From Candidatus Micrarchaeota archaeon (GTDB taxonomy: Archaea > Micrarchaeota > Micrarchaeia > Anstonellales > Bilamarchaeaceae), in the NCBI GenBank assembly GCA_040754495.1, contig JBFMCO010000004.1:1-31268 (forward strand): a stretch of DNA of 31,268 bases. Reading direction: 5' to 3'. Positions 10,301 to 26,765 of this stretch are shown one piece after another (position 1 is the stretch's first letter; each line of letters begins with the position of its first letter). The notes under the pieces are model-generated. The model had not been told where the DNA came from and searched no databases. It was given only the letters and a program-made list of their open reading frames with translations. A program made the position numbers and the translations under genes.

Positions 10301-12869
10301 GTTCCCTCCGGCCCGCATCGAGCTTCAGGAATTCAGCCAGCACGAACTCGTCGCATTCTTTCCTTCCCATGACCTCGGCCACGAGGTTCTTCTCGTACAG
10401 CAGCAGCGAGTCGAATATCTCCTTGGCGCCCTTCTTCGCCTTCTCCGCTTCCGCAGCCTCCCGGGCTTTCTGCTGCGGCGCATCTTCCGGGACAGGAAGC
10501 GGCTCCCGGTCCACCAGCGCAGTGGCGAGCCCGAGCGCGAGTCCCGGCGAATAGGACCTGCGCAGAAGCTTCACCGCAGGCAGGCATCTGGCCTCTATGG
10601 TGTCATCATGGAAATCGAAGCGGACATAGCGCACGAGCGCCCTTGCCACCCTGCGGACAAGGACGTTCCTCTCTATGTCCTTGCCGCTCTCATCCTTCCG
10701 CGGGGGTAGGAGCGGCTCCAGCTCCGCATCCAGGACGTCGTTTGTGAAGGGGAAATCGAATTTCGGGAGCCCTGGCATCTGCGGAGCGGCTTCCGGCGCT
10801 TCGGCTCCGGGCTGTGATTCCTCTGGAAGCACCGGCTGGGCCGAAGCCTGCGGCGGCCCGGGAACTTCCGCTTCGTCCTGTGGCTGCGCCTCAGGCTGCA
10901 CCTGGGCCGGCGGGGCCTCAGGCGCGATGGCCGGCGCAGGCGAAGGCTTGCCAAGGAGCTTCTCGGCGGACCTGAGCTGGGCCAGCCCGTACGCATCGAC
11001 CACCACGGCCGCTTCACTGACTATGCCTTCATGAGTCGGCGCCTGCCTGAGCCGCTCGAGGGAGTCCCGGAAGCACGGCGCGGAGTCCGCAGGCGCGACC
11101 CCAAGTTCCAGATACATGCGCAGGTTCCTTGCGGCCTGCCTTATCAGCGCTGCCCTCGCATCGGTCTTGGGCGGAAGGACTGCCTCGAGTGCAGCGTCGG
11201 TGGCCGGATTGCCGTATGGGAATGTAAGCTCTATCGCAGCGACTGAGGCGAGGGCCTCTTCTATGGTGGAGGGGTGTGCAGGAGATTCGACGGGCACTTC
11301 CGCAGCGGCCTGAGGCTGCGGCGCGGGAGGTTCACGCTCTTCCAGGCGGGTGGCAGTCTCTGGGCTGGGAAGGGGCACGACCTCGGGCTCTGCGACGCCC
11401 GATGGCAGCTTCGGTGCCTGGGGCATTGGAGGTTCCTGGGGAGCTATGTCGGGCGGAGGCGGCTGCAGGGTCGTGAAAGATTCCCTCATGCCCCTCCTCT
11501 CGTCTACCACGGCCATGGCTATTTCGTAATCGGGCGCATGCATGAATTCCTGGCTTTTCGAGAGGAGCTGCATCATCCGAACCCCGCGGGGGACCAGGCC
11601 CGGGTCGACGCCCGGGGATTCCTTCAGGGCCCTGTATTCCGCTATCATGTCGCGCGCTATTCGGAGGTCCTCGTGTGCCTGGGTCCGGGCATCTTCCTCC
11701 TGCATTGACGGAGCAAGCACGCGGACGCGCTCCTCCAAAGCGACAGCCTCGAGCGCGATGCGCATCATGGCGCGGAGGTCGGGCGCTTTCGCAGCCTGTA
11801 TGAATTCGGCGTCTCTCCCCAGGGAAACGGCCACGGCGGAAGCCCCTCCACCCCCAGCTTCATCAAGGACGAGCCGCTGCGCTGCAGCCGCATGCAGGGC
11901 GGCCTCATCCGCCTTCTCCGGAGAGAACTCGAACCCGGGCAGGTCGATATGCGAGCGGGCGAGTGGCCTGCCGGAGCGCAGCACGAACTGGAGCTGGGCC
12001 GCAAGGTCCCCTTTCGAGGCCGGCTCCGGCGCCTCTTCCCTGCATAATGGGAAATTGTCGAATGCCGGCATGCCCCAGGCGGCAGCCACGGCCCTCGCTA
12101 TCGACTCGGAATCGAAACCCACGCCGGCCCTGCCCGCTATCGTCGGCTGCAACCAGCGCTTCATAAGGGACGGCCTGAGCCTTAGCATCGAGTGCCGGGG
12201 GGTACCTGAGTCTCTCTCGCCCAATTCAACACCTGTTTCTGTCCATATACTTTTGTGTAAAGACAATTTTAAAAGGTTGATGTTCGTGGCGAGGAGGGAT
12301 GGAAGCGAGCGCTCGACGAGAGACCGTGCAAGGCCCACCACGGCCGCCTCGTAGCCTGGCATTCCATGCATCCCGGAGAGCTCTGAAACCGGCCCGCGGT
12401 AGAACCCGTTCATGTCTTGCATGGGGAATGCGCATTCTACGTAGCGGTCGAGAAGCCTTGCCAGCACCCTGACGTGGTGCGCGTGCTCGTAGCCTGTTGG
12501 AAGGCTGGTGCCCAGCATCGCCTCGAGGCCGGCGTTCGTCCAGGAGCAAGACGGCGAGAATGGCACCAGGGTCTCCGGAAGGCCCCCGAAGGCAAGGCGC
12601 TGGTTCCGTATGTCCTCAGGAAGGAAGTCGCGCTCCACCACCCACAGCTCGCGGCCCGGAATGAGGTCGGCAAGCCTGCGGAGCGCATCGCGATAGCCGC
12701 GCATGGTGCATGAGAGCGATTCGTAGTCGGGGGGCTTGGCCCGTATCGAATCCATGAGAGCGCCGGCGGCTGTGCGGAATGTTTTCGCGCGGGATTCGAT
12801 GGGGCTGGCCATGCCCCTACGCCTCTGCAGGGACCGCTCTGGCCATTGCGGAGTCCGGGGCGTGTACAT
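7323..12869 (-). CDS. Giant (1848 aa) multidomain protein containing a PP2C/PPM-family Ser/Thr phosphatase domain
   Basis: PPM motifs at about aa 1165-1470: PNEDS, VADGMGGH, DMGST, HCGDS, LCSDGMG, KPDDIT. All four metal-binding Asp positions are present. The rest is Pro-rich linkers and unassigned helical domains. A GTGGTG RBS-like sequence precedes the ATG. Confidence 0.85.
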   Translation of the reverse strand: MYTPRTPQWPERSLQRRRGMASPIESRAKTFRTAAGALMDSIRAKPPDYESLSCTMRGYRDALRRLADLIPGRELWVVERDFLPEDIRNQRLAFGGLPETLVPFSPSCSWTNAGLEAMLGTSLPTGYEHAHHVRVLARLLDRYVECAFPMQDMNGFYRGPVSELSGMHGMPGYEAAVVGLARSLVERSLPSLLATNINLLKLSLHKSIWTETGVELGERDSGTPRHSMLRLRPSLMKRWLQPTIAGRAGVGFDSESIARAVAAAWGMPAFDNFPLCREEAPEPASKGDLAAQLQFVLRSGRPLARSHIDLPGFEFSPEKADEAALHAAAAQRLVLDEAGGGGASAVAVSLGRDAEFIQAAKAPDLRAMMRIALEAVALEERVRVLAPSMQEEDARTQAHEDLRIARDMIAEYRALKESPGVDPGLVPRGVRMMQLLSKSQEFMHAPDYEIAMAVVDERRGMRESFTTLQPPPPDIAPQEPPMPQAPKLPSGVAEPEVVPLPSPETATRLEEREPPAPQPQAAAEVPVESPAHPSTIEEALASVAAIELTFPYGNPATDAALEAVLPPKTDARAALIRQAARNLRMYLELGVAPADSAPCFRDSLERLRQAPTHEGIVSEAAVVVDAYGLAQLRSAEKLLGKPSPAPAIAPEAPPAQVQPEAQPQDEAEVPGPPQASAQPVLPEESQPGAEAPEAAPQMPGLPKFDFPFTNDVLDAELEPLLPPRKDESGKDIERNVLVRRVARALVRYVRFDFHDDTIEARCLPAVKLLRRSYSPGLALGLATALVDREPLPVPEDAPQQKAREAAEAEKAKKGAKEIFDSLLLYEKNLVAEVMGRKECDEFVLAEFLKLDAGRRELIIRELVADTWLGSEWKAGIAALHQMRGSLYQKCGLAEPSTEEKLLTVTNPQALTATQKHLVASLFDIKPEAVTAGHIQSFGVWLRGDEDELLRWWDSKYSHQAAVDSLLEKMRAGRGTFSDHESSMLAWVLGKTPPQLIPADFQRTGEVKAMADYLHDKCERWFSPSKEERLQWWRHGMYDLLTASSLAHKLRFVPDAAFTPEETALASRMLGKRVDLSSLAEDDHKRLWTAFVRHTSNSHYIDEVLKLASLGPAMHHASLIGMAKREAEFVTLADFLGADARRPYGSVGGAGWGTLAKNDGNGKELPNEDSCSSAEVEMPDGSRVILDMVADGMGGHNTGTDGSGRTNGQRASAVAKEVFELAAVAGWISTPEDARRTILLADLAVVMEQIRSKASADDSRENDMGSTITIAMQHNDRFWGIHCGDSDWKILREGEAVFSSVGHSSEWGARQDLRLMALAEVGKAWADAGHDVERLDGQLLQQFDAQVEARTDEIFQAHSNMIVKGGVAAALGHIMPHVHVNNSAGGYDAFTLRPGDILALCSDGMGVPICDHEFGIFISQSGSDLTFARDSMIAEAARRVGKSSGSTKEHPTLCTCRTRPGKPKPDDITLKMRYVLGQPPKTPTGISQDQGPAAQNETEAADAEPEAATAAAEDEEGVDVEMEEATSPGAVSYPWVAALIHDDPRGFAVSAQYRGLLDLAMEKSTGYLELGQIFDVFIEAAESAPPKSSMDAHTIAICTVFAVVSQRDDRDKLLELLRPRIGSWSGLIMKKLKNAPDSSQRRRAMFDFVAGVVPAEELAPLARARNPEVARWAKEAMGMSWPEPESEPGQEARHSIFNSQTDVAGNGLDMHATRYLDGIVLDVGDSAIVQDVAAKLGILPRDLEIMVFYAYSDFNPQMAVDPHMSVEGQELIPGVSMHLLTGDAERILKASFLIYALREGEPKPEEAAGMRDALWKVVRGMDQLAPYALPFHNKAYLLGPPPKKIAGTE

Positions 12870-13151: not shown

Positions 13152-13868
13152 TCAGGCCACCGGGACCTGGAACAGGACGCCCACGAGGTATCCTGCGAGC
13201 GCTGCCGTGCCGCCGATTATCATCAGCTCGAGGCCGCCATTGAGCCACTTCCCGGAGGTGAGGCTGCTCTTGTACGCCCCGACGACGAAGAGGATGGCGA
13301 GCGATGAGGCGAGGGAAACCGCGATGGACTCGGCTATCGGCAGGAAGAAGAACGGCGTTATCGGGATGAAAGAGCCGACTATCGCGCTGAAGCCGACAAG
13401 GGCCCCCTGCCAGAATGGGGACATGGCCTCGGCCGGGTCCTCCAGCTTGAGCTCCTCCTTCATCATCGTGCTGAGCCAGACCTTTTTGTCCGAGCAGATT
13501 TTGTCCACGACGTCTTTCAGCAGCTTGCCGCTGAACCCCTTCGCGCGGTATATATCCTCTATTTCCTTGCGCTCCATCTCTGGTATCTCGTCTATCTCGC
13601 GGAGCTCGCGCCTGACTTCGGACTGGTAGTGCTCGGCTTCTGCCCTCGTAGATGTGTAAGCCACGGCCGCCATGCTGATGCTTTCCGCGAATGTCGCGGC
13701 CAGGCCTGCAAGGAGGACGATGGGGTTGGAGTTGGTTGCTGCTGCGACGCCGAGGACAATGCCGAGGACATTCACCACGCCGTCCTGCCCGCCGAGGATT
13801 ATGTTGCGGAAGAGCAGGCCGAGCTGGGTCGTGTGGTTCTCCTGGTGGGGCGGGACGCTTTCTGCCAC
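13152..13868 (-). CDS. VIT1/CCC1 family (Fe2+/Mn2+) transporter
   Basis: IILGGQDGVV...AATFAESISMAAVAYTS signature, EIEDIYRAKGF cytoplasmic domain, and GSFIPITPFF plus further TM helices. The start is uncertain: GTG at 13868 is preferred, and the ORF extends to 13910. Confidence 0.9.
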   Translation of the reverse strand: MAESVPPHQENHTTQLGLLFRNIILGGQDGVVNVLGIVLGVAAATNSNPIVLLAGLAATFAESISMAAVAYTSTRAEAEHYQSEVRRELREIDEIPEMERKEIEDIYRAKGFSGKLLKDVVDKICSDKKVWLSTMMKEELKLEDPAEAMSPFWQGALVGFSAIVGSFIPITPFFFLPIAESIAVSLASSLAILFVVGAYKSSLTSGKWLNGGLELMIIGGTAALAGYLVGVLFQVPVA

Positions 13869-13923
13869 GCAGGAGTAGCGGAAATCAGGTTTATTATAGT
13901 TTGCCAGCATCTATCAAGCAACC

Positions 13924-14257
13924 GGGCTCGTAGCTCAGCAGCAGAGCGCTCCGTTCGCATCAAACTTTTGGGAACGGCAAAGAACGGCGAACCGTTCTTT
14001 GCGCCCATGGAAGCATTGCTTCCATAGGGAAGTTTGATCAAAACTGGCTGTTGAAAAACCCTGTCGGGTTTTTCGGCGAAAGCCATTTTGCCCGCAAGGG
14101 CAAAATTAGCAAGCCGGTTTTGATCGCCCTTTTCCTAAAAGGGCGGAAATCGGAGAGGCCGGGGGTGCGAGATTGTGTTTCCAGTCTCGGGTTCCCAGTT
14201 TCGCAACGGAACTGGAAACGGAAAACCGGAAACCCAACGCATTTCCCCCCGAGTCCA
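13924..14257 (+). tRNA. tRNA-Ala(CGC) with two introns (13960-14149 at 37/38; 14172-14243 at 59/60)
   Basis: Acceptor GGGCTCG/CGAGTCC with G3:U70 and A73 (Ala identity). D arm GCTC/GAGC, anticodon stem CTCCG/CGGAG with loop TT-CGC-A|T, variable loop AGGCC, T stem GGGGG/CCCCC. The second intron has a full hBHBh' motif (TGCG/CGCA helix, 3-nt bulges, TTG/CAA). TATA-like TTTATTATA upstream, oligo-T downstream, no encoded CCA. Confidence 0.9.
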
Positions 14258-14271
14258 TTTTTCTTTTTTTT
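14258..14271 (+). terminator. Oligo-T terminator after tRNA-Ala
   Basis: TTTTTCTTTTTTTT directly after discriminator A73. Confidence 0.7.
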
Positions 14272-14305
14272 ACTGCTTCCAGCCGCAGCCACGACTAGTC
14301 CATTT

Positions 14306-16003
14306 CTATTTCCTGATTAACCTTACGTATAGCGAAATGTCATCGTCCTTTCCGCCGCGGTCCGGGCAGCCGCACGTGGTCTTGTAAGTCTGCCTCGACT
14401 CCCTGCGTGAATCCGCCAGCGATACTATCTTCCGGACCGCCTCCTCCTGCGAAGCCGGGAGCGACATCGCAAGCTCGTGCTCGCACACCGTGTCCCCGAT
14501 GCCGTCAGTGTAGGTGAAGGCCGCGTCGCCAATCTGGAGGATGATTGGCTCGTAAAGGCCCCTTGGCTTGTTGTTTATGTCTATTGCGCGCGGTCCGATG
14601 CCAAGGCCTGCCCAGATGCGGTTTCCGAACCCGTGCGCGTTCGTCGAGAAGAGAGTCTTGCCGGCGCGCACTATCAGCGATTTGCTGTCGCCGCAGTTGA
14701 TCGAGTAGAATCGGTTCCCTTCGAAATACGAGACGGTGGCAGTGGTTCCCATGTCATGAAGGCCGGTGCGCTTTTTCTCCATGTTTATCGCGATGTCCGC
14801 AAGCACCACTGCGCGCCGGACATCCTCCGGGCAGCGAATCCACCCTGCAAGCGCGGAAACCTCGAGGGCCTGCTTCGCAACCGAGCTTGCGACGCTGGCG
14901 CCGTGGTAGCCGCTCACGCCGTCGAAGACTGAATCGAGCGAGATGCGCCGGCCGCCCACGAGGATTTCAAGCGACGACTTCGAATCGCCGTTGGATGGGT
15001 GGTCGCCCTCCAGGTTCATGCTTCCGATGCAGATGCCCCTCGCCCCGTCTATGGACGCAGAATGCGCCTCTCGCGCTATTCCGAGCGAATCGAGCACCGT
15101 CTCGAACTCCATGCTGGCTCGCGCGTCTTCGAGCAGCGGCTCCTTGCCTCCCCATACCAGGTGGGGAAGGGTTGTCAGCGGACCGTGCAGGTAGAAATCG
15201 AAGCCGTTTGCGGCCGAGGAAGCGAGGATATCGTTCATCCCATGGCTGATTTGATTGGACCGGAACGCCCTGCGCAGGAGCATCTCCTCGTCAGCAGTGA
15301 GGAGCGGCTTGTCCGTGAACCTGAGCTTGTGCACCAGAGAGGCCAGCGTGGACGCGCACGGATTCATGCGGCGCCACTCCGTTCCAAGGGATTCCGGCAG
15401 AAGGTGCGACACCCAGCGCCTGAATTCGTCCATCTGGGCATGTGTCAGGCCGCGGCTTGCGACTTCCGGAAAAGCGGAGAAGAAACCGAGCTGCGCCTGC
15501 GAAAGCTCCCCTGGCGCCATGAGGGCGCGCATCCTCTGCTCCGCGGTCGGCCCGGCAAGGGCGAGCTTCCCCTCGAGGGACTCCATAGCGGAGCGCGCCT
15601 CATCCAGTTCGGCCGATACCAGGTCCGCGCAGTAATGGGCAGGCCGCTTGCCGTCCCGCACTTCCTGCTCCCGCCTGGTCGTCCATCTTCCAGAGGTCCA
15701 GATTGCGCTTATGGCATTCTTCATGCGCAGCTCTCTCACGCCCGGGTCCATCGACCGCAGGGCCTCAAGCTCCTCCCCGCCGACACTGGCGCAGCGGAGC
15801 GCCGCCAGAACAAGCGCCTCTTCCGCCACAGCAAGGCCGTGCGCATCGGATGCATGGGCCGGCTCATCTGAGATATGGACGCCCCAGTTTCCTGCTATGC
15901 TCCGGGCGAGTTCCTCGTGGTCAAAGGATATGCCCTTCCTGCCGGCGAGCGTGCTGAGCGTAGCGAATCGCGTCGTTTTCCGTGCGCGCTCCTGATGCGA
16001 CAT
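14306..16003 (-). CDS. PP2C/PPM-family phosphatase with N-terminal helical extension; paralog of the central part of the 1848-aa protein
   Basis: Motifs SNGDS, VFDGVSGYHG, DMGTT, NCGDS, YTDGIGD, KDDDIS. ATG at 16003 follows GAGAGGG; the track ORF starts at 16018. Confidence 0.85.
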   Translation of the reverse strand: MSHQERARKTTRFATLSTLAGRKGISFDHEELARSIAGNWGVHISDEPAHASDAHGLAVAEEALVLAALRCASVGGEELEALRSMDPGVRELRMKNAISAIWTSGRWTTRREQEVRDGKRPAHYCADLVSAELDEARSAMESLEGKLALAGPTAEQRMRALMAPGELSQAQLGFFSAFPEVASRGLTHAQMDEFRRWVSHLLPESLGTEWRRMNPCASTLASLVHKLRFTDKPLLTADEEMLLRRAFRSNQISHGMNDILASSAANGFDFYLHGPLTTLPHLVWGGKEPLLEDARASMEFETVLDSLGIAREAHSASIDGARGICIGSMNLEGDHPSNGDSKSSLEILVGGRRISLDSVFDGVSGYHGASVASSVAKQALEVSALAGWIRCPEDVRRAVVLADIAINMEKKRTGLHDMGTTATVSYFEGNRFYSINCGDSKSLIVRAGKTLFSTNAHGFGNRIWAGLGIGPRAIDINNKPRGLYEPIILQIGDAAFTYTDGIGDTVCEHELAMSLPASQEEAVRKIVSLADSRRESRQTYKTTCGCPDRGGKDDDISLYVRLIRK

Positions 16004-16059
16004 GGCCGGCCCTCTCAATGTTGTGTGAATTAGAAGTTTGTGTAAATCGGTTTAAAACA

Positions 16060-24248: not shown

Positions 24249-26765
24249 ATGTGCAACTTATACCTCGAAGGCACGAGGGCCATCGTCGACCTCGCCAAAT
24301 GCCCCTACGAGTTCGCCTCCCCCGAATTCCTGAACCTGCACCTCAAAGACCTCTCGACCACCGAGTCCCCCATCAAGACCATAAGATATGAAGAGGAGAT
24401 AGTGGTTGAGCTGGATGAAGGAAAGACCGCCATCCTCACCCAGTATGCGGCCTTCATCAGGCAGCTCGAGACGATACTTCTGCGCGACGACATATACGGG
24501 CTGAAGCAGGACCCCGCCTACGACAACCGCAGGAAGGTCCTCAAGAGGTTCTATGAGTACGTGTTCCTGAATCCGCTTCTTGCCGCGAACGAGCTCGCCG
24601 GGTACGATGAGCCCGAGCCTGAGAAGAACATATATGTGAAAGGCTACCAGACCTACAAGGCGTGGGTGGCAGGCATCCTCAAGAGATACACGTCCACCAA
24701 GCTGTATGATCTCGTGAAGACGACCGGGGATTTGCGCGCGGCATTCCTGGAGCTCGTCGGCCTCAAGACGCTCTACTTCGTCCCGTCGCTCGTGCTCGGC
24801 ATCCCAAAGGATGCCGTTCCCGTCAAGGGCCCTGACGCGAGCTACTCGCTCCCTTACGGCGTCCAGGTCCAGATATACGAGATACCCGGGGCTGAGGCCT
24901 ACCTGTACGTCCAGGAGAACAGGTCCATAGAGGCCCTCTCGCCGGAGCTGAACAAGCTCCTGAAGTCCACCATAAACGAGCAGTTCAAGGAGCAGTTCAT
25001 GAACGTGGACTGGGACATCCTCATGCAGCTCAAGACGAGGGAGTTCCGCCAGTTTTTCATAGACAGGGCCATGATTGACGGCATAGCGATAACGCCCCAG
25101 CAGGCGATGGCAATGGGCCGCGAGTGCGCGGCGTGGGTCGTCGGCCTCGGAGCGCACATAGAGAACCTCTCGCTCGACAAGGAGAACGTGACGGACATCT
25201 ACATAGACAGCGAGAACTCGCCGATATACATCGAGCACAGGAAGTACGGCCTCTGCCACACGCTATTCAGGTACAACCGGGACCTCCTCGAGCGCTCCTT
25301 CAGGAACATCGTCTACACTCTCAGGGGCACGAGGAAATTCGACGAGAGCAACCCCATCGTGGACGTCGTGCTGAAAAGGCTGACCATGAGGTGCCACCTC
25401 CAGAGGCCCCCGGCGACCTTCGGTGAGCTGCAGTCCGCGCTGAGAATCATGAAGGAGGAGCCGTTCACGTACGCGCAGTACCTCAACTACAACTCCTTCA
25501 CGCCGTTCTTCGCCGGCTACGACGACACGATGGTAACCCTCGGATGCTCGGAAGCCGTGCTCGGCCTGAAAGGCGTCGGAAAGACGTCCTTCACCGCTGC
25601 AAAGATAACCTCGATAGGCACCCGCAGGAGGATAATACCGGTGCAGGACATCGAGGAGATTCCGGTCCGCGCGTTCAGGAAGAGGGGCTTCCACATAGGC
25701 GCCGCGAGGGTGCAGAGCTCGGACGTTGAGGAGGCCACCACCAAGGAGCTCGACCTGGTCACGATGGCGAACGCCCTCCTGCGTATGGGCGATGCCGCGC
25801 TGATAATCAACGAGGTGCGCTCGCGCGTGGCCGTGCAGGGCATAATCAACCTGCTGAACACCCAGCCGGGCGTGTTCCTGCTCTACAACCTGCACGCGGA
25901 GTCGCTCCGCGACATCCAGGACAGGCTGGAGCTGGTTTTCGGCCTGCCGGCCGCGAGCATGTACGCTACAGACCGCTACAGCTTCCTCAAGAAGGTCCGC
26001 TTCGGGCGCAAGGGCCGCATATACCGCGTGCTCGGCTTCGAGTACGAAAGCGACATAGAGGAGAAGAAGTTCGTGGAGATATTCCGCTTCAGGAGGGGCG
26101 ACAGCATAGAAGGCTGCACGTGGGAGGCGAAATTCCTTCGGAACCCCGAGGGCTCCATGTGGGACTTCTCCAAGGTGGACATCAAGAAGCTCCAGAAGGA
26201 GCTGGACATCGCGTTCATACCGCCAGCGCTCGGGAGGAGGGCCGAGGAAACGGGCATATCCCCTGAGCAGTACATACTGCAGGCGTTCTGGAAAGGGAAA
26301 ATGTACTACGACATCTTCAAGCTCAGCCAGCAGATGAACGACAAGCTCATGCTCGAGCTCGATTTCGTCCTCAAGGTGAACACGGCCGCAGGAAGGCTTC
26401 TCGTCTCGATGGAACAGGAGCAGGGGGAGATAGACTTCGGCGAGGCGTGGGAGAAATGGGGGCCGATATTCAAGGAAACCGTCCGCACCGAGCTCGAAAA
26501 AAGAAGGGCTGGCGCTCCTGCCGTCGAAGAGGAGCCGGTCGTCGCCCCGCCTGCCGCGCCGGCAGGCGCAGGAAGGGTCGTGACCGCGGCAGCGCCGCCA
26601 GGAGCCGCTGCGCCTCCGCCTTCATCCCGCGTCGGGGAGGACGTCGAGGAAGAGGAAAAGGGCGGTGAGGACGAAGGCGAAGCGCCGCCCCCGGAGGAGC
26701 CTGAGAGCCTTGCCTCGCTCCGGGAGAAGCTGAGGGCGAAGAAGCTCGGCATCAAGAAGAAATAA
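24249..26765 (+). CDS. Type II/IV secretion-pilus assembly ATPase (VirB11/TadA/ArlI-like), divergent, with long N-terminal region
   Basis: Walker A GLKGVGKT, Asp box QDIEE, Walker B LIINEVR, His box LHAES, and an N2-like region with DIYID and RCHLQRPP. GTTTTAAAAC lies about 25 nt before the ATG, suggesting a leaderless mRNA. Confidence 0.8.
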   Translation: MCNLYLEGTRAIVDLAKCPYEFASPEFLNLHLKDLSTTESPIKTIRYEEEIVVELDEGKTAILTQYAAFIRQLETILLRDDIYGLKQDPAYDNRRKVLKRFYEYVFLNPLLAANELAGYDEPEPEKNIYVKGYQTYKAWVAGILKRYTSTKLYDLVKTTGDLRAAFLELVGLKTLYFVPSLVLGIPKDAVPVKGPDASYSLPYGVQVQIYEIPGAEAYLYVQENRSIEALSPELNKLLKSTINEQFKEQFMNVDWDILMQLKTREFRQFFIDRAMIDGIAITPQQAMAMGRECAAWVVGLGAHIENLSLDKENVTDIYIDSENSPIYIEHRKYGLCHTLFRYNRDLLERSFRNIVYTLRGTRKFDESNPIVDVVLKRLTMRCHLQRPPATFGELQSALRIMKEEPFTYAQYLNYNSFTPFFAGYDDTMVTLGCSEAVLGLKGVGKTSFTAAKITSIGTRRRIIPVQDIEEIPVRAFRKRGFHIGAARVQSSDVEEATTKELDLVTMANALLRMGDAALIINEVRSRVAVQGIINLLNTQPGVFLLYNLHAESLRDIQDRLELVFGLPAASMYATDRYSFLKKVRFGRKGRIYRVLGFEYESDIEEKKFVEIFRFRRGDSIEGCTWEAKFLRNPEGSMWDFSKVDIKKLQKELDIAFIPPALGRRAEETGISPEQYILQAFWKGKMYYDIFKLSQQMNDKLMLELDFVLKVNTAAGRLLVSMEQEQGEIDFGEAWEKWGPIFKETVRTELEKRRAGAPAVEEEPVVAPPAAPAGAGRVVTAAAPPGAAAPPPSSRVGEDVEEEEKGGEDEGEAPPPEEPESLASLREKLRAKKLGIKKK

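Follow-up and report, generated by a model that had tools for sequence, protein, structure and literature searches.

The window analysed here is the whole 31,268-nucleotide stretch from a Micrarchaeota (DPANN) assembly of ~1.63 Mb (59.5% G+C, 80% complete), which we label G000. It carries an intergenic spacer (13911-14305) between a minus-strand gene of the VIT1 family (13152-13910) and a minus-strand gene encoding a PP2C-domain protein (14306-16018), and on the plus strand of this spacer lie three separated pieces of one tRNA. Exon 1 (13924-13959, 36 nt; tRNA positions 1-37) holds the 5′ strand of the acceptor stem, a D arm with the GG-less loop AGCAGCA, the 5′ strand of the anticodon stem and the anticodon loop through CGC-A37, as placed by ARAGORN on the joined sequence. 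Exon 2 (14150-14171, 22 nt; positions 38-59) contributes the 3′ strand of the anticodon stem, the variable loop, the 5′ strand of the T stem and the T loop UGCGAG, while exon 3 (14244-14257, 14 nt; positions 60-73) supplies U60, the 3′ strand of the T stem, the 3′ strand of the acceptor stem with U70 and the discriminator A73; both were delimited by ARAGORN on the joined sequence together with the orthologues. CCA is not encoded after A73. Intron 1, at 37/38 (plus strand, 13960-14149, 190 nt), is made of three abutting domains and bears a relaxed BHB motif, its borders being set by intronless orthologues and by the register of the motif, and intron 2, at 59/60 (plus strand, 14172-14243, 72 nt), bears a strict hBHBh' motif around an interior formed by a GGAAAC-rich hairpin. 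A TATA-like A/T-rich box, TTTATTATA (13890-13898, plus strand), can be read 26-34 nt upstream of the tRNA 5′ end and a T-rich tract (14258-14271, plus strand) immediately after A73. Comparable A/T boxes stand upstream of the Ala(CGC) orthologues at variable distance, and T runs follow most of them. We regard the box as a candidate archaeal promoter element and the tract as a likely transcription stop. A scan for bacterial promoters and terminators, whose coverage does not extend to archaeal promoters, returned no matches. Coding in the spacer was considered and rejected, as the five longest (70-132 aa) of the six overlapping ORFs of 50-132 aa had no Pfam match. An Rfam search at relaxed threshold gave only chance-level miRNA, CRISPR-repeat and pseudoknot models, all with E >1, and these were likewise rejected.

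When the three exons were joined, ARAGORN called the resulting 72 nt as tRNA-Ala(cgc), with an acceptor stem of 7 bp, a D stem of 4 bp, anticodon and T stems of 5 bp each and an anticodon loop of 7 nt. The alanine identity set, G3:U70 and A73, accompanies the anticodon CGC. The introns add up to 262 nt (190 + 72) and the precursor to ~334 nt. A first-pass annotation made from the letters alone had proposed that the three exons rebuild a complete cloverleaf with G3:U70/A73 and that the introns total 262 nt; its coordinates proved exact and the measured lengths agree. It had also warned that a standard scan could overlook the gene, and this is what happened with the tools that were tried, ARAGORN (also with introns allowed) and Infernal/Rfam. 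ARAGORN missed the genomic gene in default mode on the window and, with long introns allowed, reported nothing on contig 4 when run on the whole 1.63-Mb assembly, and Rfam model RF00005 gave it no score at gathering or relaxed thresholds. Once intron 2 was deleted by hand ARAGORN detected the gene but misplaced the 190-nt intron, while deletion of intron 1 alone left it undetected; an intronless orthologue (L019), sharing 70 of 72 bases with the joined exons, scored 61.7 bits on RF00005, whose cut-off is 29. Most tRNA genes of this genome, Ala(CGC) among them, are missed by standard scanners. ARAGORN found only about six intron-free tRNA genes in the whole genome. Many of its intron-bearing calls carried a wrong anticodon; Ile(GAU), for example, was called as Ser(gga) and Ala(UGC) as Val(aac). 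The tRNA set of G000 needs manual reconstruction. GCG makes up 35% of the alanine codons in long open frames, and without the Ala(CGC) gene the genome would appear short of a dedicated decoder for about one third of its alanine codons.

The exon borders could be fixed by comparison with related genes. A DNA search of 60 related genomes gave matches in 42, and two genomes of the same genus, G005 and G031, possess intronless Ala(CGC) genes of 72 nt. These differ from the predicted product only by a compensating acceptor-stem pair (C6:G67 to U6:A67), with G59 replaced by U in addition in G031. Both were found by ARAGORN and reached ~62 bits on RF00005 (cut-off 29), and exon 1 is identical, save C6 to U, in the intronless orthologues L019 and L020. 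Since the intronless gene of G005 and six intron-bearing orthologues adjoin the same VIT1 gene, these loci are orthologous. Two paralogues within G000 tell the same story for the second junction. An Ala(GGC) gene on the minus strand of contig 56 (21446-21303) has positions 1-59 unbroken and an identical exon 3, its sole intron being a 72-nt one at 59/60 which is 94% identical to intron 2 of Ala(CGC) by BLAST; an Ala(UGC) gene on contig 22 (56229-56397) has introns in the D loop and at 37/38, and its unbroken T arm is exactly the predicted exon 2-exon 3 junction. The closest copy, the orthologue in G011, is identical over 72/72 exon bases, whereas its intron 1 is ~82% identical (0.82^72 = ~6e-7 by our own arithmetic), and intron 2 is ~81% identical to the 59/60 intron of the G010 orthologue. 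Invariant exons beside a diverged intron 1 form the pattern that would be expected from selection on a working tRNA. We searched for a second Ala(CGC) gene by BLAST of the pieces against the 80%-complete assembly and found none, so that the intact copy elsewhere, which the first-pass annotation had coupled with a decayed gene at this locus, did not turn up in this assembly.

The joined tRNA departs from the usual elbow. Its D loop is AGCAGCA (13937-13943) and its T loop UGCGAGU (14166-14171 plus 14244), and in place of the conserved G18, G19, U55 and C56 it has A18, G19, G55 and C56, so that the near-universal G18 and U55 are lacking. A18 and G55 are common to all Ala genes of the genus, with a D loop AGYAGCA, and this includes the intronless ones (also L019, L020, L034, L050 and L051). 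Of 176 genomes of the order, 57 have a GG-less D arm, and most of these belong to one family. The other tRNAs of G000 that were compared (Ile, Thr, Pro, Leu and Val) have normal GG and UUC, and the tRNA-Ala(CGC) of another genus (G044) has a canonical elbow. Judged by this distribution, the A18/G55 elbow is a trait of the lineage and not a mark of decay. We found no report of it in the literature.

The two introns differ in their splice motifs, which were judged by the strict BHB rule: a 4-bp helix with a 3-nt bulge on either side, flanking helices, and a cut behind the second nucleotide of each bulge. Intron 2 satisfies this as hBHBh', with the 5-bp T stem, the bulge AG^A, the 4-bp helix UGCG/CGCA, the bulge UU^U and an outer helix of 3+6 bp; when the precursor is folded without constraints, its minimum-energy structure contains the motif. 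It is kept in the contig-56 and G010 copies, and in G032 an unrelated intron at 59/60 has a strict motif of its own. Intron 1 has the 5-bp anticodon stem, the bulge AA^U and the helix UUCG/CGGA, with 4/4 pairs including one G-U, and just one contiguous outer base pair, so that it falls short of the strict motif and qualifies as relaxed (hBH/BHL-like). Its outer helix is formed by 13961-13967 with 14030-14036 and is parted from the core by an insert of ~107 nt, comprising domain 2 and hairpin 3. Because the outer helix is separated from the core by these two extra hairpin domains, the 5′ site (CA^U) sits in a multi-helix junction. The first-pass annotation had described intron 2 as lying at the non-canonical 59/60 site with a strict BHB, and the exact motif and its presence in the minimum-energy fold bear this out; it had given intron 1 a relaxed motif at 37/38 with a minimal outer helix, of which the position and the relaxed class stand, while the outer helix does exist, displaced by ~107 nt. 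The registers -1, +1 and +2 of intron 1 would leave the mature sequence as it is at the cost of the H and A helices, and only 37/38 fits.

Among orthologues the intron strand of this helix, H3, occurs as CGGA, CGAG, CGGG or CGAA, all of which pair 4/4 with UUCG, and as CUGA, AGAG or CGAC, which pair at 3/4. The short orthologous introns (40-57 nt; G004, G007, G010, G017 and G032) have a contiguous outer helix of 9-12 bp, AAACUUUU/AAAAGUUU, and this helix is still present in G000, G011 and G033, where it forms the stem of domain 1. Folded without constraints, the precursor has at its energy minimum neither the anticodon stem nor the H1 helix, whose formation requires the opening of the two basal pairs of hairpin 3. 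A fold forced to hold the cloverleaf and both H helices lies 2.6 kcal/mol above the minimum.

Intron 1 as a whole is strongly structured (-99.5 kcal/mol, z = -10.6), and in the alignment of orthologues it belongs to a nested size series running from 40 to 190 nt. Domain 1 (13961-14036, plus strand) is the outer ('B') helix CAAACUU/AAGUUUG with a two-hairpin insertion in its loop, ~55-60 nt long at roughly 13970-14029, where the orthologous short forms have a plain hairpin. The inserted element consists of an AAGAACG...CGTTCTT hairpin and a CCATGGAA...TTCCATAGG hairpin, and it was seen in the window (~13970-14029), on contig 28 (~24650-24710), on contig 59 (~11950-11990) and on contigs 23 and 45. 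It sits in the loops of different intron hairpins, inside hairpin 3 in Thr(CGU) and with the hairpin order inverted in Leu(CAG). The inverted order points to rearrangement or insertion at the DNA level, and the element as such suggests a miniature mobile element acting at that level. Domain 2 (14037-14124, plus strand) is a three-way-junction module common, by BLAST, to introns of several other tRNAs. Identities of 78-90% link it to the introns of Thr(CGU), Ile(GAU) and Val(GAC) and to a further unassigned tRNA gene of G000, and partial matches to the Pro(UGG) and Leu(CAG) introns of the same genome. Its copies in G000 lie in 37/38 introns of at least six tRNA genes, always in the orientation of the tRNA, and copies are present in many relatives as well; a shared structure is kept in an alignment of 13 copies, and 6 of its 25 pairs show compensating changes. 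Hairpin 3, CGCCCUUUU/AAAAGGGCG (14125-14147, plus strand), was delimited by motif search and folding, and its base overlaps H3 (CGGA, 14144-14147, plus strand), which pairs with U32-G35 of the anticodon loop and is followed by the bulge AA^U. The junction-type architecture recurs in the Thr(CGU), Ile(GAU), Val(GAC), Pro(UGG) and Leu(CAG) genes of G000, and ARAGORN gave no other copy of Ile(GAU); the cell therefore very likely splices it. Reading by eye revealed no RUGAUGA or CUGA boxes of a C/D box guide in intron 1. In intron 2 Tandem Repeats Finder reported nothing at a score of 30 or above, the GGAAAC heptads being too degenerate for an array.

Decomposition of 18 Ala(CGC) genes of the genus into exons and introns gave three intron sites, namely the D loop, 37/38 and 59/60. 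Two genes have no intron (G005 and G031). Nine have one, which lies at 37/38 and measures 40-147 nt in G004, G007, G017, G028, G021, G029 and G033, at 59/60 only in G013 and in the D loop only in G024. Two introns are found in six genes (the host genome G000, G010, G012, G032, G036 and G011) and three in one (G022). In silico splicing of all 18 yields a near-identical tRNA, and in G012 and G013 the anticodon stem has undergone compensating changes from CUCCG/CGGAG to CUCGC/GCGAG. One orthologous gene with zero to three introns and fixed exons offers a clean natural series for the gain, loss and growth of protein-spliced introns, and the genus series, whose members range from strict to junction-type, provides natural substrates for mapping the limits of the epsilon2 endonuclease. 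In G036 (contig 30, L025) a stray copy of the first 15 tRNA nucleotides, GGGCTCGTAGCTCAG, lies 56 nt upstream of Ala(CGC) and may be the remnant of a duplication or of an integration event. Sequence akin to intron 2 is placed at 59/60 in the Ala(CGC) and Ala(GGC) genes of G000. In G034 it occupies 37/38 of Ala(UGC) (contig 1, ~235400-235560, L031), and the intron there is ~80% identical to intron 2.

Tentatively, and with less than even confidence, we propose that intron 1 is a layered composite, in which an ancestral 37/38 BHB intron of ~40 nt grew to 190 nt by insertion of palindromic hairpin modules at the DNA level. Such modules would circulate among the tRNA introns of the lineage, and tRNA introns would serve as safe landing sites for miniature mobile elements. 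If this is true, the epsilon2 endonuclease tolerates a 5′ splice site in a four-way junction, a tolerance wider than that seen with any substrate tested.

The enzymes needed for processing are encoded in the genome. A 391-aa protein on contig 14 aligns end to end (E 1.2e-132) with PDB 4fz2, the ARMAN-2 epsilon2 EndA, and a by-eye comparison with the published residues indicates that it keeps the catalytic triad Y236, H251 and K282 and the specificity-loop Lys (GTYK). Its match agrees with the link that the first-pass annotation had drawn to the broad-specificity endonuclease of Micrarchaeota (ARMAN), and, judged by the enzyme, the genome is of ARMAN-2 type. An RtcB ligase is present as well (551 bits). 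A second, small ORF of 168 aa that matches the tRNA intron endonuclease catalytic domain was noticed on contig 31 (L022:1276-1779, plus strand; 33.5 bits). From the gene anatomy, the exon borders, the motif geometry, the conservation and the enzymes present we infer that the precursor is transcribed, cleaved and ligated. The ~334-nt precursor would probably be transcribed from the A/T-rich box ~30 nt upstream, with its 3′ end at the T tract that follows A73. The cut at intron 2 would be made by the homodimeric epsilon2-type endonuclease at the textbook hBHBh' built on the T stem, and the same enzyme would cut intron 1 at its relaxed motif. There the 3′ site would lie in an ordinary 3-nt bulge, flanked by the anticodon stem and the 4-bp UUCG/CGGA helix, and the 5′ site CA^U at the multi-helix junction. 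Ligation of the three exons by RtcB would follow, and after that the addition of CCA. We hold it very probable that 13924-13959, 14150-14171 and 14244-14257 together form one functional tRNA-Ala(CGC) gene with two protein-spliced introns. The gene need not be essential, as tRNA-Ala(UGC) could read GCG by wobble.

One may argue that the locus is instead a decayed copy, in which intron 1, by expanding to 190 nt, disrupted the contiguous BHB, the 37/38 intron is retained and GCG is left to tRNA-Ala(UGC). The one contiguous outer base pair of intron 1, against 9-12 in the short orthologous introns, would agree with this, as would the absence of the anticodon stem from the minimum-energy fold and the unusual D and T loops. 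The odd loops, however, are common to all Ala genes, the intronless ones included, and the exons have not changed at a single position relative to G011 while intron 1 has diverged by ~18%. Moreover, G011, G033 and G021 retain the long form, and H3 co-varies there in such a way that its pairing to the anticodon loop is preserved; the same architecture is shared by the genes for Ile(GAU), Thr(CGU), Pro(UGG) and Leu(CAG). The codon GCG is in heavy use, and the search of the 80%-complete assembly yielded no further Ala(CGC) gene. Taken together, these observations render decay improbable. That tRNA-like fragments of a hairpin-rich spacer came together here by chance has practically no probability and is already refuted by the comparative data: 70 of 72 bases equal those of intronless orthologues, one of them syntenic, the two differences form a compensating pair and a strict BHB falls exactly at an independently set border. 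Nothing speaks for it except that tRNA scanners do not report the gene.

A functional, spliced gene could also be processed by another route, in which the two-hairpin element of domain 1 (~13976-14025) is itself a BHB intron that is removed first and thereby simplifies the precursor before the cut at 37/38. A strict BHB does bracket the element: its helices are GGGA/UUCC and, on the inner side, GCAA/UUGC, and its bulges AC^G and AU^A. At the homologous place in the G011 orthologue there is likewise a strict BHB, with an outer helix of 9 bp. Yet about three strict-BHB matches are obtained per 391 nt of shuffled sequence, which puts this one within chance expectation, and the Ala(CGC) and G011 copies are orthologous and therefore not independent. 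The inner helix would have to compete with much stronger local hairpins, no bracketing motif accompanies the copies of the element in the Thr(CGU) or Leu(CAG) introns, and removal of the element would not bring the outer helix beside the core. We thus consider nested splicing very unlikely, even more so than decay, and retain direct cleavage of intron 1 at its relaxed 37/38 motif as the preferred reading.

The canonical archaeal tRNA intron lies at 37/38 and has a strict hBHBh' motif, as in the tRNA-Trp of Haloferax volcanii. Intron 1 resembles it in the 3-nt bulge at the 3′ site and in the 4-bp helix formed by anticodon-loop bases and the 3′ end of the intron, and differs in that its outer helix is not contiguous with the core, as it is in the short orthologues. 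The nearest known system is ARMAN-2, whose disrupted tRNA genes and three-unit epsilon2 EndA have been described (Fujishima et al. 2011, PMC3239211; Hirata et al. 2012, PMC3488258; Miyata et al. 2025, PMC12397907). In ARMAN-2, 56% of the tRNA genes are disrupted, and in vitro its EndA acts on one strict motif at 37/38 and one relaxed motif at 59/60 (PMC3239211). G000 shares with ARMAN-2 the phylum-level lineage, as judged from the endonuclease, and the introns at 37/38 and at the non-canonical 59/60, several per gene and with a mixture of strict and relaxed BHB motifs, as well as tRNA genes that standard scanners miss and BLAST with exons recovers. On the other hand, it belongs to a different genus and has a genome of ~1.6 Mb with 59.5% G+C, and Ala(CGC) is not among the ARMAN-2 examples in the available part of PMC3239211. 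The Ala(CGC) gene combines a relaxed 37/38 with a strict 59/60 motif, the reverse of the two ARMAN-2 test substrates; the relaxed substrate cut by ARMAN-2 EndA in vitro is a simple hBH motif at 59/60, with no junction carrying a 107-nt insert. Intron 1, by contrast, is a long one of 190 nt, with an insert of several domains between its outer helix and its core.

Multi-intron tRNA genes and transposed introns are also known from Thermoproteales (Sugahara 2007, 2008; Fujishima 2010; summarised in PMC4033280). These resemble the present lineage in having up to three introns per tRNA and related intron sequences in non-synonymous tRNA genes and at different positions, for which domain 2 and the intron-2-like sequence are the counterparts here. 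Unlike Thermoproteales, the host is a member of DPANN and not of Crenarchaeota, and its endonuclease is of the epsilon2 and not of the (alpha-beta)2 type. In contrast to the whole short introns shared in Thermoproteales, the shared units here are hairpin modules nested within introns, one of them occurring in both orientations. The two-intron layout is thus already known for Micrarchaeota, and the Ala(CGC) gene extends the known picture but does not change it; what goes somewhat beyond the literature, as far as the available parts of these sources show, is the junction-type relaxed motif, the modular growth of an intron and a series from zero to three introns at one orthologous gene.
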